This document shows, piece by piece, positions 26,741-35,327 of a DNA stretch of 64,000 bases. The position numbers and the translations under genes are program-made. Numbering within the stretch: position 1 is the stretch's first letter; the number at the start of each line of letters is the position of its first letter. Source of the stretch: a virus. Lineage: Duplodnaviria; Caudoviricetes. The DNA lies in the IMG/VR virus record IMGVR_UViG_2772190778_000001. One strand, given 5' to 3'. The notes beneath the pieces are model-generated. The model saw only the letters and a list, made by a program, of their open reading frames with translations, was not told the DNA's origin and ran no database searches.

Positions 26741-27850
26741 TCACTCCACATACCGAAACCCCTGCACGGCGCGGAAATGGCCGCCATAGCCAGTCCCGGC
26801 GGGCTTCAGGCCGCGACGCGCCCGGGCAGCGGCGAGGGTCTTCATGCTGCGTTCCTTGGACTGGGCGTAGAGGATGGCGGAGACCTGCGCCCAGAGGGGA
26901 TCGCGGCGGAGCGCTGCGGCGAGGCCGGGGTGCGAGGTGTGAAAGAGCATCGGCATCGGTTTGTCGTAGCGGTTCACGCCGCGCCGCCAGAGGGCGCAGA
27001 CCTCGTTGAGAAAGCGCAGGCCCAGCCCCGCGCCTTGCCACTCGGGCATGACGACAAGGCGACAGGCGCGGCCCTCGACCAGCCCCGGCCGGGTCGAGAC
27101 GGCGAGATGCGCCACGGGCGCGCCATCGACGAAACCCACGTAGTAATTGGCCGCGATCATGCGGGGCAGCTTCAGGTAGTGATGCGGCTCAAAGGCGGGC
27201 CAGAAGGAGCCGTCCGTCTGGTGAATGTCCATGGCAATGCGCGGTGCCCGTCGAAGACGCCTCCAGCGGAACTCGGCGCGGCGGGTGTCGATCACCCAAT
27301 CGGGCTGTAGCCATGACACCACGTCCTCGTGACAGGTGACGGCGACGAACTGGCCTTTGCCGCGCCGCCACGCCTTGGCAAACGCGGCGGCCCCGATCTG
27401 GGCCACGCGCCGGTCGATGGTCGAGGTGAACTCGTCGAGAATGGCAAAGCTCGGCCGCTCTGCCAGAATGCGCGCCAACTCAGCCCGGAATTGCTCGCCG
27501 GTCGAGAGATGGTGGAAGGGGCGCAGCCAGCTCGGCACGGTGCCAAGGCCCACGGCGGAGAGGGCCGCCGCGACGGCATCGAATGCGCCCTCGGGATCAA
27601 TCGCGTCGATCAGCGCGCCCTCGGGCCACGGACGTGGATCAAGCTGCGCGCCAAAGGCCGCGCGGGCAAGCGAGGATTTGCCGCTGCCCGAGGGGCCGAC
27701 AATGAGGCCGATCTGCCACGGCCGGGCCAAGAGATCGGCCTCGACCTCGAGGCGGAAATCCGCGTCGCCCTCGACGTTGAAGAGGCTGGAGACCCGGGCC
27801 GCGCGGTAGGTGTCCGGGATGGGGCTAGGGTGGTGGATGGCGAGCTTCAT
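26741..27850 (-). CDS. ABC-type ATPase fused to GNAT acetyltransferase (mom position)
   Basis: GPSGSGKS, LSTGEQFR, ILDEFTS, VTCHED; HHYL and RLVVMPEWQGAGLG. Confidence 0.88.
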   Translation of the reverse strand: MKLAIHHPSPIPDTYRAARVSSLFNVEGDADFRLEVEADLLARPWQIGLIVGPSGSGKSSLARAAFGAQLDPRPWPEGALIDAIDPEGAFDAVAAALSAVGLGTVPSWLRPFHHLSTGEQFRAELARILAERPSFAILDEFTSTIDRRVAQIGAAAFAKAWRRGKGQFVAVTCHEDVVSWLQPDWVIDTRRAEFRWRRLRRAPRIAMDIHQTDGSFWPAFEPHHYLKLPRMIAANYYVGFVDGAPVAHLAVSTRPGLVEGRACRLVVMPEWQGAGLGLRFLNEVCALWRRGVNRYDKPMPMLFHTSHPGLAAALRRDPLWAQVSAILYAQSKERSMKTLAAARARRGLKPAGTGYGGHFRAVQGFRYVE

Positions 27851-28029
27851 GTCACCACCACGCGGCATTTGAAGCCCTGACGGCGCAGGCGGCCAAAGGC
27901 ATCCACTTGGGCGGCCTCGTCCTCGAGCAGGACAATGACGCCATATTGCCGCCGGTAGCGGGTGCCCTTGGGCAGGCCCGGCGCACCGGGCGGCAGCTCA
28001 GGTTTCGGGAGGGTGGACGATCTTGCCAA
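27847..28029 (-). CDS. Small protein coupled to ABC-GNAT
   Basis: AAGGAG RBS plus TTG; YGVIVLLEDEAAQ...GFKCRVV; ATGA overlap. Confidence 0.7.
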   Translation of the reverse strand: MARSSTLPKPELPPGAPGLPKGTRYRRQYGVIVLLEDEAAQVDAFGRLRRQGFKCRVVVT

Positions 28030-28201
28030 GTTTGGCTCCTTCTCTTAGCGCATCGCGCTTTGGGGGAAGGGCTCTTGGCCTCGGTGTGTTCATGGCCCGG
28101 CATCTTGGGCACTTGATCGAGATGCCGGATATCCGCGCGCCTCTCGAAAACTTGAATAACAAACGGCCACATGCGCAGCAACGGGCATCTCGATCTTCCA
28201 C
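27998..28201 (-). CDS. com: Com-like zinc-finger translational regulator
   Basis: RC.ACGRLL...IKCPRC..N; GAGGTG RBS plus GTG; overlaps the next gene as in Mu com-mom. Confidence 0.85.
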   Translation of the reverse strand: MEDRDARCCACGRLLFKFSRGARISGISIKCPRCRAMNTPRPRALPPKRDALREGAKLGKIVHPPET

Positions 28202-28776
28202 TTAGAATCACCTCATAAGATCACCGCCCCCTTGGGGCAGGGAGCGGCCATGAGGTCTGTCTGGTCGGCGGGGTTTCTGTTTGGTGACGTGGCCCCGTGC
28301 CCTAGGGCGCGTTCCAGAAGCGCGCGCCCTAGGGTCTCTCTCTAGCGCCACAGTGGGGCCAGCGGCCGGTGTGGTTCGCCAGTTTCGCGCGGGGCAATCG
28401 GCCATTCCAGATGAAGGATTTCCGAGGGTCCCACGGCCCCTTGTGCTGTTTGAGCCCTTTGGCGCTGCCAATCTCTGAGCGGGCCGCCGGAGACACACGT
28501 ATCTCGCCACGATGTGAACGGGAGTGAGGCCTTATGCGGCCCCGCGGACCTCGACCCTGACCACAGAATCGCCCATTGGTGCCGCGGCTCTCCTCCGAGC
28601 TTGGGGCGATGATTTGTTGTGTTGGTCGGCGGGGCCCTGCGTTTTGCATCCCCGTGCCTCGGGACGTGCCCTCCCTGCGTCCCGAGGCCCCCATGGAGGC
28701 AGGCCTATAAGGGTCACCAATGGTCTGCGGCATAATCCGCCTGCATCGGGTCCATGGCCAGCAGCGCAGTCAGGAC
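28202..28776 (-). ncRNA. Candidate structured RNA/leader with two copies of a conserved module
   Basis: TGGTCGGCGGGG...CCCCGTGCC followed by a perfect 11-12 bp hairpin at 28262-28334 and 28623-28688; no convincing ORF. Confidence 0.45.
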
Positions 28777-29220
28777 TTAGCTGTCGAACTCTGCTATTTC
28801 AGCCTCGAACTGCCCGAGCGCATCGTCAGTATCCGTTACAGATTGCGACAGGCTAATGGCCTGGATCGTTTCGATCCGCGCCTTTTCCAATTGAGCGCCA
28901 ATGTCTCTCCACTGGGCCGCCAGATTCAGAAACACTTGGGCCACTTCGTATGCGCTGCTGCCTGTAGATCCGACTTCTCCGGCAATAAATGGATAGTCTT
29001 GTTCCCAGCCTGCCACCGTGTTTGGTTCGGGTGTTGCTGCGACGTACGCCAAGGCCTCGGCTTCCTTGGCCATGTAGATCATGGATTGACCCGCAATCGA
29101 CGTGATGAACCTCGACCTGATCTGATCCATTCTCTTGTTGACGGCATCCTTGGCTTTAGCCTTGCAAACGTTCAGTTCGCGCGCTTTGCTCACATCGGAG
29201 CGGGACAATATGCGTGTCAT
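28777..29220 (-). CDS. Tail fibre-associated/assembly protein (DUF4376-like)
   Basis: IR.RFIT...GQ.MIY.AK..EA, YPF...EVG, LE..R motifs; follows tail tip genes. Confidence 0.7.
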   Translation of the reverse strand: MTRILSRSDVSKARELNVCKAKAKDAVNKRMDQIRSRFITSIAGQSMIYMAKEAEALAYVAATPEPNTVAGWEQDYPFIAGEVGSTGSSAYEVAQVFLNLAAQWRDIGAQLEKARIETIQAISLSQSVTDTDDALGQFEAEIAEFDS

Positions 29221-29639
29221 TCAATCATTACCTCGGCAAATGTTGGAACATGGGGAAATGGTGCTTCGACCTCGACCCGGTATGTTCCGGGGTCAATAAA
29301 TTCAAATGCCTCCTCGTGATCATCGGTTTCGGCAATGATTGTTGCCATGACTTCTTGACCAGTTTGATCAAATACATTGATCGTCGTTCCTTCGGAGCAT
29401 GACGGAACAATTATCTTGCCATCACTTGAATAAGGTTGGGGCGACTTTGGTCTTGAAACAAGGATACCTTCGACAAGCATCATGTTACTCAGCTCATAAA
29501 GGGTCACCGGAACGGGTGTTTGAATCTCGCCGTCGCTTGGCTGATCGACCACAACCCTCATAAATCCCTCGGGTTGACCGCTGGTAGAAACTGCTTCCTG
29601 GACAATGCCCTGTTCGTTCAATTTCACAAAATATCCCAT
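29217..29639 (-). CDS. Hypothetical tail-associated protein
   Basis: Coupled between tail tip and fibre-associated gene; AT-richer. Confidence 0.7.
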   Translation of the reverse strand: MGYFVKLNEQGIVQEAVSTSGQPEGFMRVVVDQPSDGEIQTPVPVTLYELSNMMLVEGILVSRPKSPQPYSSDGKIIVPSCSEGTTINVFDQTGQEVMATIIAETDDHEEAFEFIDPGTYRVEVEAPFPHVPTFAEVMIE

Positions 29640-34658: not shown

Positions 34659-35327
34659 TCAAACCCCCACGATCTGCACGAAAGAAAACTGCGCGCCTTC
34701 GGCCCTGCCAGAGCGATGCGCGCCGTAGGCCGGATTTGGTTCAAGCCGCGCCTTGATCACGGGCTTGATCAGCGTCACGGGGTCACTGACGACAACGCCG
34801 GGCTGAATGGGCGGCGTCACCTGAAGCCAGTCGGTCGTGCCGAGCGGGCCCGACTGAATATCGCTCACAACGCGGTGCAGGGCATAGCGGGTGGGGTTGC
34901 TGCCATATTGCCAGCCAATGAAATCGCCGCCGCGAAGCCAGTATTGGCTCGGCATGCCTTGCAGCTTGACCATCCGCGCATCGTTCGCGTCGAGCTGCGC
35001 AATCGTTGGCGTGGCCGCGCCGAGGATTGTCCCGGCCGGATCATCTGCCGGGTGCGTCTTGACCGGATCATGAACGAGAAACGATGCGCCCGGGGTATTG
35101 AGCACGGACAAGAGCGCGTCGATCCGGGCTGCGTCCGAGCGGTTGTTGGTGGGGGGAAGAGAAAACGATCCGCGCCAGTTGCTCTCGCCTGTCTGGGCAG
35201 GGAGCGGCACACCGCCCGCCGTGCGGTCGATCTGCATGGGCGTGTTGATATAAAATTCCGAGACCGAGATTTTCAATCTGGCCTGAAACTCCGCGAATGA
35301 AAGCGGGAATGCGAGCGGGTCTGCCAT
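34659..35327 (-). CDS. Distal tail-like protein
   Basis: Immediately after tape measure; TAATG overlap. Confidence 0.7.
   Translation of the reverse strand: MADPLAFPLSFAEFQARLKISVSEFYINTPMQIDRTAGGVPLPAQTGESNWRGSFSLPPTNNRSDAARIDALLSVLNTPGASFLVHDPVKTHPADDPAGTILGAATPTIAQLDANDARMVKLQGMPSQYWLRGGDFIGWQYGSNPTRYALHRVVSDIQSGPLGTTDWLQVTPPIQPGVVVSDPVTLIKPVIKARLEPNPAYGAHRSGRAEGAQFSFVQIVGV

Follow-up and report, generated by a model that had tools for sequence, protein, structure and literature searches.

The 575-bp gap (28202-28776) in front of com, in a 64,000-nucleotide window of viral DNA that contains two related Mu-like prophages, holds what appears to be the region that controls a late DNA-modification operon of the phage, one harmful to the host, and that acts apparently by means of RNA on both strands. 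The module that is repeated in this gap is almost certainly a conserved structured regulatory element, of which more than 130 distinct copies were found in Rhodobacterales prophages. The gap itself is very probably a tandem duplication of a unit formed by a control element of ~140 nt and com, in which the downstream unit is intact and the upstream com has decayed. The original prediction, of a conserved, structured and so far uncatalogued regulatory element heading the modification operon, is upheld by this, except for the extent that it gave the element, the link that it drew to Com and, probably, the strand for part of the structure.

The genes surrounding the gap are all on the - strand (Table 1). 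The 147-aa gene that closes the tail region has its stop codon 82 nt upstream of element A, the first of the two copies of the element, and the second copy, element B, is followed by com. The com product matched the Pfam family Zn_ribbon_Com (PF10122) with 27.5 bits, the cut-off being 22.9, and its start codon is a GTG 9 nt after GAGG. The letters ATG AGG TGA at 28209-28217 (-) make a three-codon mini-ORF, where the com of the sister prophage continues as MRRFD...; the true start in both prophages is probably the GTG or TTG 9 nt past GAGG. The com coding sequence also contains a perfect 12-nt inverted repeat, GATCGAGATGCC / GGCATCTCGATC, at 28115-28126 / 28184-28195, which brackets the first zinc-finger half and is absent from the com of the sister prophage (L002). 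Further downstream, the 375-aa ABC-ATPase/GNAT protein in the mom position matched phrog_11143 with an E value of 4e-131 and is homologous to gp29 of Burkholderia phage phiE255. A search of 300 genomes of the same family with this protein gave no match beyond its own genome, and relatives were therefore sought in viral and species-genome collections. Close relatives of the protein are also found in phages of Pseudomonas, Porphyromonas and Gordonia, and in the Gordonia phages the relative adjoins a gene with a ParB-like nuclease domain.

Table 1. Positions of genes, control elements and helices in the window, and of divergent copies of the element in cultured phages (positions within the respective locus). 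R1 is the covariance model.
Feature	Position	Strand	Basis or remark
Tail protein, 1312 aa	29641-33579	-	Pfam Phage-tail_3; upstream of the 28777-29220 gene
Small gene	29217-29639	-	between the 1312-aa tail protein and the 28777-29220 gene
Last tail-region gene, 147 aa	28777-29220	-	ORF list; phrog_32459
Element A, weaker upstream copy	28557-28695	-	R1 57.9 bits, E 1e-16
Stem ATCGCCC/GGGCGAT	28568-28574/28603-28609		form of hairpin P3 in element A
Decayed com relic and filler between elements	28336-28556	-	collinear alignment with com
Stem GAGAT/GTCTC			within the com relic
Element B, intact control element, abutting com (5')	28196-28342	-	P1, P2, CCGACCA, P4/P3, ribosome-binding site, GANTC
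P1 of element B	28300-28334	-	12-bp perfect hairpin, 11-nt loop
P2 of element B	28269-28297	-	CGGGG (28297-28293) pairs with CCCCG (28273-28269)
P4 of element B	28245-28267	+	CGGCCA (28245-28250) : UGGUCG (28262-28267), one G.U
P3 of element B	28211-28256	-	CCUCAU (28256-28251) : AUGAGG (28216-28211); minimum-energy fold
Stem GCCCC/GGGGC	28226-28230/28234-28238		tip of P3 in element B
GANTC (CcrM-type) site of element B	28205-28209		between ribosome-binding site and com GTG
com, zinc-ribbon translational regulator	27998-28201	-	Pfam PF10122; PHROG 'translational regulator'
Rest of controlled operon after com (60-aa gene and 375-aa protein)	26741-28029	-	
60-aa gene of controlled operon	27847-28029	-	downstream of com
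ABC-ATPase/GNAT protein, 375 aa, mom position	26741-27868	-	Pfam ABC_tran and GNAT; phrog_11143
Divergent copy, Sinorhizobium phage Aussie	L415 749-883		R1 E 6e-8
Divergent copy, Rhizobium phage RR1-B	L416 761-898		R1 E 2e-5
Divergent copy, Ochrobactrum phage POA1180	L418 736-866		R1 E 5e-3

Both of the hairpins originally predicted in this gap, and both of the GCACGGGG...CCCCGCCGACCA blocks that go with them, were found at the expected places, and chance was ruled out as their cause. The perfect inverted repeats measure 12 nt (28300-28311/28323-28334) and 11 nt (28656-28666/28678-28688), each with a loop of 11 nt, while TGGTCGGCGGGG is present at 28262 and 28623, a spacing of 361 bp, and CCCCGTGCC at 28293 and 28650, a spacing of 357 bp. 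The joint pattern CACGGGG-N10-25-CCCCGCCGACCA gave two exact matches, compared with 0.00 expected from 100 shuffles. The 4.38-Mb genome contains only three exact copies of the module, all of them before com in the two prophages, the third one preceding the com of the sister prophage, and matches with one mismatch are no commoner than a reversed-pattern control accounts for. The module is therefore a feature of the phage, and a genome-wide repeat (REP, MITE or IS end, including the IS200 type) was rejected because there are just these three copies, each before com. The additional stems that had been named, ATCGCCC/GGGCGAT, GCCCC/GGGGC and GAGAT/GTCTC, exist as well, two of them as parts of hairpin P3 and the last within the com relic.

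Read in the mRNA sense, the element begins with a small hairpin, P0, which is often present and has GGAGG as its 3' arm, and continues with P1, an unpaired ACA, P2, CCGACCA, ~10 nt, P3 and GANTC up to the start codon. P1 is a GC-rich hairpin of 8-12 bp across the family and is followed by ACACGGGG, with no U-tract. P2 consists of CGGGG...CCCCG enclosing a loop that is C/A-rich on the mRNA strand, with a spacing of 15-19 nt and more. The long hairpin P3 starts with the motif (C)CUYAUGGCCGC, and its 3' strand closes with the ribosome-binding site, RAGG, ~9 nt ahead of the start codon. P4 is the pairing of CGACCA with UGGCCG (mRNA sense), and because it shares bases with P3 (5' strand), the two helices are mutually exclusive. 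P3 of element B covers the GAGG ribosome-binding site of com, and P4 of the same element, when read on the mRNA strand, has an A.C mismatch at the pair that is G.U on the + strand. The minimum-energy folds of element B and L002 have the ribosome-binding site paired, and in a simple hairpin model only 67 of 111 elements have at least three of its four bases paired. We also considered a pseudoknot joining the P2 loop (GUCACC/GUCGCC) to the com start (GGUGAU/GGCGAU) and rejected it, since it fails in L015 and L017; its apparent covariation between the two prophages is linkage of two sequence types. Likewise rejected was a tRNA-like 3' end or att fragment, for which ...GACCA had been the indication, because the P2 loop has 15-19 nt and there is no T-loop; Mu-type phages transpose, which also argues against an att fragment.

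The two hairpins differ in sequence and keep full pairing, and what had looked like covariation between them proved to be true covariation when more than 100 relatives were compared. Helices P1, P2 and P4 covary, with a covariation score above those of 500 shuffles and of all slid controls in alignments A3, A5 and A7. For P1, 204 cells had changed on both sides against 70 in shuffles, and the score of 0.207 (shuffled 0.071; slid controls at most 0.062) was reached by none of the 500 shuffles. P2 and P4 are fixed by the search patterns and were therefore tested on protein-anchored alignments only, for which the loci had been fetched by protein alone and the RNA motif was unconstrained. The P2 variants in these alignments are ACGGG/CCCGU, ACAGG/CCUGU, UGGGG/CCCCA and GCGGG/CCCGC, four of the five pairs change on both sides (A5) and 97% of the cells are paired. 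At one pair of P4, U-A and G-C replace A-U, at another U-A replaces C-G, and the usual A.C position can also be A-U or G-C; compensatory changes are seen at four of the six pairs (A5 and A7 together). The unpaired ACA and CCGAC are invariant in the family. Alignment of the P3 region alone by MAFFT and RNAalifold was too poor for a formal covariation count.

The original prediction had regarded the 575 bp as one structured non-coding region with a duplicated RNA-like module. We find instead two tandem units of element and com, the upstream com having decayed. The covariance model R1 gave element B 102 bits (E 7e-31) and also recognised the weaker element A, which keeps P1 (28656-28688) and P2 (28630-28654), has lost the 3' strand of P4, has exchanged its P3 for another stem and has a GANTC at 28566-28570. 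The sister prophage has a single module (R1 93 bits), in a gap of ~130 nt that separates com from the last gene of its tail region. In the phage with two modules, the intervening 287 nt do not fold better than their shuffles on either strand (z +0.25 and -0.41). The alignment of this stretch with com starts at GATTC after element A and is collinear; its score against the phage's own com is weak (31 versus 21.3 +/- 3.5, reached by 8 of 300 shuffles), and that against the com relics of another phage, L256, is clearer (47 versus 21 +/- 3.3, reached by none of 300). Four related prophages, among them that of Roseovarius sp. 217, share this stretch with 90-95% identity, and its substitutions among these four are spread as 12/10/9 over the three codon phases, with no 3-base periodicity. 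This even spread, together with one 27-nt and one 2-nt deletion in the relatives, indicates that the stretch is non-coding. No conserved ORF accounts for the region: the two candidates, at 28329-28733 (134 aa) and 28208-28510 (100 aa), were rejected as they have no Pfam match and no phase bias, and because of the deletions in relatives. Taken together, the R1 scores, the single module of the sister prophage and an insert that is com-like, without fold and without periodicity argue for a duplication and not for a large RNA, and the gap would owe its length only to duplication of the unit and decay of the upstream com. Among close relatives, element A is conserved no more than the relic is, which counts against this explanation.

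Tandem arrays of element and com recur in other phages, as seen in L256 (IMGVR_UViG_2693429884_000001, 670-1501), where three tandem elements precede a Dam-type methylase. The units between its modules align with com at scores of 73 and 84 versus 20 +/- 3, yet are frameshifted. Each of these com relics terminates in a duplicate of the upstream gene's 3' end. Tandem copies such as these could mark exchange sites of modification cassettes.

The element belongs to an uncatalogued family and would be a new RNA family. The expectation that it matched no known family was confirmed with Rfam 15: cmscan of 27500-29500 on both strands, at E values up to 10, returned only chance matches to microRNAs and lncRNAs, with at most 22 bits as compared to gathering scores of 45-100. 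For this reason c4, ctRNA_pGA1, SAM-II/V, SAM/SAH and ribozymes were all rejected, none having an Rfam 15 match near its gathering score. The earlier suggestions of a self-cleaving ribozyme or a target of Com have found no support.

The hosts of the family are marine and soil alphaproteobacteria carrying the element in prophages, and its position is always the same, after the tail-fibre genes and before the first DNA-modification gene, be this com, a Dam-type gene or a ParB-methylase gene. A pattern scan of viral contigs gave ~30 distinct true copies amid chance matches. A stricter pattern applied to one genome per species gave 105 stretches in ~100 species genomes, nearly all of them Rhodobacterales (Roseovarius, Ruegeria/Tritonibacter, Cypionkella, Pseudorhodobacter, Paracoccus, Thioclava and others); the remainder were mostly Streptomyces matches that do not fit the element, along with single matches in MAGs that are unrelated and two matches ascribed to alphaproteobacteria of other groups. 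Each of 123 distinct copies is followed by com, by the gene of a D12 (Dam-type) adenine methylase with the motif APW/YLGGKRNLAKR (Pfam PF02086) or by that of a ParB_N-methylase fusion. The element is not tied to Com, since phages that have no com carry it in front of Dam-type and ParB-type methylase genes. In the protein-anchored searches, an element ending at the com start was found in 25 of 27 viral loci whose Com is at least ~44% identical, and in 0 of 33 with a more distant Com. Of 80 Dam-type loci, 25 had the element, in each case immediately 5' of the gene, and the scores drop as the methylase diverges.

No match to element B was found by blastn among deposited phage genomes, so that divergent copies had to be sought with the covariance model. 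With filters off, R1 detected such copies in the unannotated gap before the DNA methylase genes of three cultured phages (Table 1), and gave nothing convincing on Burkholderia phiE125, Komagataeibacter phiKM1 and Microcystis phage loci, which have the same methylase family. A weak R1 match within the window (35158-35219, -; 14.4 bits, E 0.0085) lies inside the tail-module coding region and is probably due to chance.

To compare the two strands, G.U and A.C pairs were scored symmetrically and then counted, an A.C in the mRNA sense being a G.U on the + strand. All counts that follow are in the mRNA sense; the sequences are related, so that the cells counted are not independent events, and a strand bias in mutation could contribute to the excess of A.C. 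P4 (A5 and A7 together) has 236 Watson-Crick pairs, 59 A.C, 0 G.U and 7 others, and as its A.C pairs are distributed over several pair positions, it is ~98% paired on the + strand versus 78% on the mRNA strand. The inner and middle parts of P3 have 51 A.C and 20 G.U, and the base of P1 has 123 and 7, mismatches that its overlap with the upstream hairpin P0 could account for. The interior of P1, with 22 of each, has no strand preference, and the outer helix of P3, which lies over the ribosome-binding site, has 24 A.C and 71 G.U. The minimum energies of 30 elements add up to -2123 kcal/mol on the opposite strand versus -1886 kcal/mol on the mRNA strand, the + strand being G/U-rich, which lowers the folding energy by itself. 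For element B the fold energy is -70.4 kcal/mol (z -4.9) in the mRNA sense as against -70.0 kcal/mol (z -3.1) for the opposite strand, and for element A the corresponding z values are -1.4 and -3.0. The mRNA sense had been assumed throughout in the original prediction; this agrees with the outer helix of P3, whereas the wobble pattern of two helices indicates the opposite strand, and for part of the structure the mRNA-sense reading is probably wrong. In our reading, the outer helix of P3, which hides the ribosome-binding site, would have been selected in the mRNA, and P4, P2 and P1 would have been selected at least as much in an RNA of the + strand.

GANTC is the recognition site of the alphaproteobacterial methylase CcrM. 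This site is found in the spacer between ribosome-binding site and start codon in 85 of 103, 24 of 25 and 17 of 26 aligned elements (A3, A5 and A7 respectively), its centre base varying between T, G, A and C (C in RR1-B), compared to a background of 0.0015 per base and 35 sites in the whole window. A GANTC conserved before the start codon suggests an added layer of control that would depend on methylation by the host CcrM, much as Dam and OxyR gate mom in Mu. A scan for sigma-70 consensus promoters, which alphaproteobacterial and activator-dependent promoters escape, found none on either strand in the window and none at a fixed place in 108 elements. U-tails after the + strand hairpins are not enriched (1.58 versus 1.53 expected), so that the putative antisense RNA has no defined ends and, with neither signal found, is inferred from structure. 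The element usually starts a few tens of nucleotides past the end of the upstream open frame, with a median gap of ~13 nt, a value that is rough because GC-rich DNA often contains long spurious frames. Transcription of the mRNA probably reads through from the tail genes, or else begins at a promoter requiring an activator.

From these features we propose, with middling confidence, that control is exerted on two strands, a self-masking leader and an antisense RNA keeping the harmful modification operon silent. On the - strand, the tail-gene transcript, or one from a promoter that is unrecognisable by consensus, would enter the leader, in which P3 would pair CCUY with the GAGG of the first modification gene and so turn translation off by default. 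On the + strand, the adjacent hairpins P4', P2' and P1', held by G.U pairs, would form a small antisense RNA complementary to the leader, and this RNA may repress or adjust the operon in the lysogen or during early infection. P4 versus P3 would then be the switch point, and the methylation state of GANTC may feed into the control. Such a mechanism would explain how one element can serve com, Dam-type and ParB-type genes. It would also suit the genes in the mom position of Mu-like phages, which are harmful, tightly controlled and silent until late (PMC3299994).

Perhaps the mRNA strand acts by itself as a leader and no antisense RNA is made. P1, P2 and P4 would then be a sensor in which a late protein of the phage or a small ligand stabilises P4 (CGACCA:UGGCCG); the stabilised P4 would strip off the 5' strand of P3 and free the ribosome-binding site, and the A.C mismatch would keep 'off' as the default. 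This is consistent with P3 and P4 being mutually exclusive and both varying in a compensatory way, with the pairing of the ribosome-binding site in the folds and the preference of the outer P3 for mRNA-sense wobbles, and with the invariant unpaired ACA and CCGAC, which like the C/A-rich P2 loop resemble a binding surface. The element also abuts the upstream gene, making read-through likely, and the antisense promoter or terminator that was looked for was not found. However, P4 would carry one or two A.C in its 6 bp in most members, at varying positions and never with a G.U, and this is how a helix of the opposite strand looks. No known riboswitch class matches, and since the enzymes differ in cofactor (SAM-dependent methylases; ATPase-GNAT) a common ligand is not obvious. 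We consider a leader of this kind unlikely. The wobble pattern in favour of the + strand would also suit a stand-alone small RNA gene on that strand, with targets elsewhere in the host or phage and placed here by inherited gene order, and the P1 loop of the + strand does tend to begin with UU, and 48 of 103 loops have a YUNR-type start. A gene of this sort is nevertheless hard to reconcile with a position that never departs from the start of the first modification gene, no matter which gene that is, and that overlaps its ribosome-binding site, and with RNA ends that neither the promoter scan nor the U-tail count defines; it is thus a very improbable explanation.

We also doubt strongly that the element works at the level of DNA, as a recombination boundary for cassette swaps and/or a methylation-sensitive (GANTC) promoter or operator in which the hairpins are incidental. 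One element common to different downstream genes, tandem arrays in the window and in L256, and a GANTC that is conserved with its centre base free would all suit this, but the asymmetry of G.U and A.C is meaningless for duplex DNA, the spacing of the P2 loop varies (15-19 nt and more), and the stems change their sequence while keeping their pairing, unlike protein-binding palindromes, which keep their sequence. Stems that vary in this way likewise argue against a fixed palindromic operator for an activator of the Mor/C family. The remaining proposal, that the hairpins are just terminators separating the tail operon from the modification operon, draws on the GC-rich hairpin directly after the stop codon and on L037 and L063, in which a hairpin is followed by a U-run on the + strand. 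On the mRNA strand, though, P1, P2 and P3 are seen on direct reading to have no U-tract, an intrinsic-terminator scan of the window reported none at these hairpins, the + strand tails are not enriched in U, and the conservation of blocks like CCGAC or AUGGCCGC without variation would not be expected of terminators, all of which makes this proposal scarcely credible.

In Mu, mom is controlled by the C-dependent promoter Pmom, by Dam and OxyR sites and by a translation-inhibition hairpin that Com opens. The control region of the present phage resembles that of com-mom in Mu in that it lies after the tail-fibre region and heads a late DNA-modification operon beginning with com, in that a hairpin would hide a translation start, and in having a host methylation site within the control region. 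Downstream of the element and its relatives lie ABC-GNAT, D12 or ParB methylases. In contrast to Mu, where the hairpin lies between com and mom, the element is upstream of com, it can be present where com is absent, and it has no relation to the Mu region in sequence or in Rfam. On direct reading, the family consensus has no GATC cluster like that of Pmom and has a single GANTC instead, and signals of an RNA on the opposite strand are not known to be part of the Mu scheme. As in Mu, the operon is harmful to the host (PMC3299994). Non-specific adenine methylases linked to com are found in other Mu-like prophages (Hin1523, Nma1821 and Hia5; PMC3299994). These are similar in having a D12-type methylase behind com in the mom position, for which 5' regulatory elements have been proposed, and different in that they belong to gammaproteobacterial and Neisseria prophages, for which no such structured element is described (PMC3299994).

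The proposed antisense arm has its closest parallels in cis-antisense RNAs, which include P22 sar, lambda OOP, P1/P7 c4, hok/sok and the plasmid countertranscripts (Rfam ctRNA_pGA1). In the two-strand mechanism that we favour, a small RNA with several hairpins would likewise lie opposite the leader of a gene that is kept off, and the leader would, as in hok, fold back over its own ribosome-binding site; P4, the base of P1 and the inner part of P3 are kept by G.U pairs on the strand opposite the target gene. Unlike these RNAs, the element has no Rfam match on either strand at E values up to 10, its antisense RNA is predicted from structure, and the genes controlled are DNA-modification enzymes.

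Phage DNA-modification enzymes defeat host restriction and are harmful if they are made at the wrong time, and outside Mu we know of almost nothing on how they are restrained. More tentatively than the two-strand control itself, we suggest that a leader masking the ribosome-binding site, a structured antisense RNA and a CcrM site could form a switch equivalent, in alphaproteobacteria, to the Dam/OxyR/C/Com control that Mu exerts on mom, and one that travels with any modification gene. A compact conserved element before three unrelated kinds of modification gene is a defined and testable handle on this control. For annotation, it explains long 'empty' gaps before com and dam genes as copies of the element and relics of genes, and through its GANTC site the element may tie the expression of phage genes to the CcrM methylation cycle of the host.
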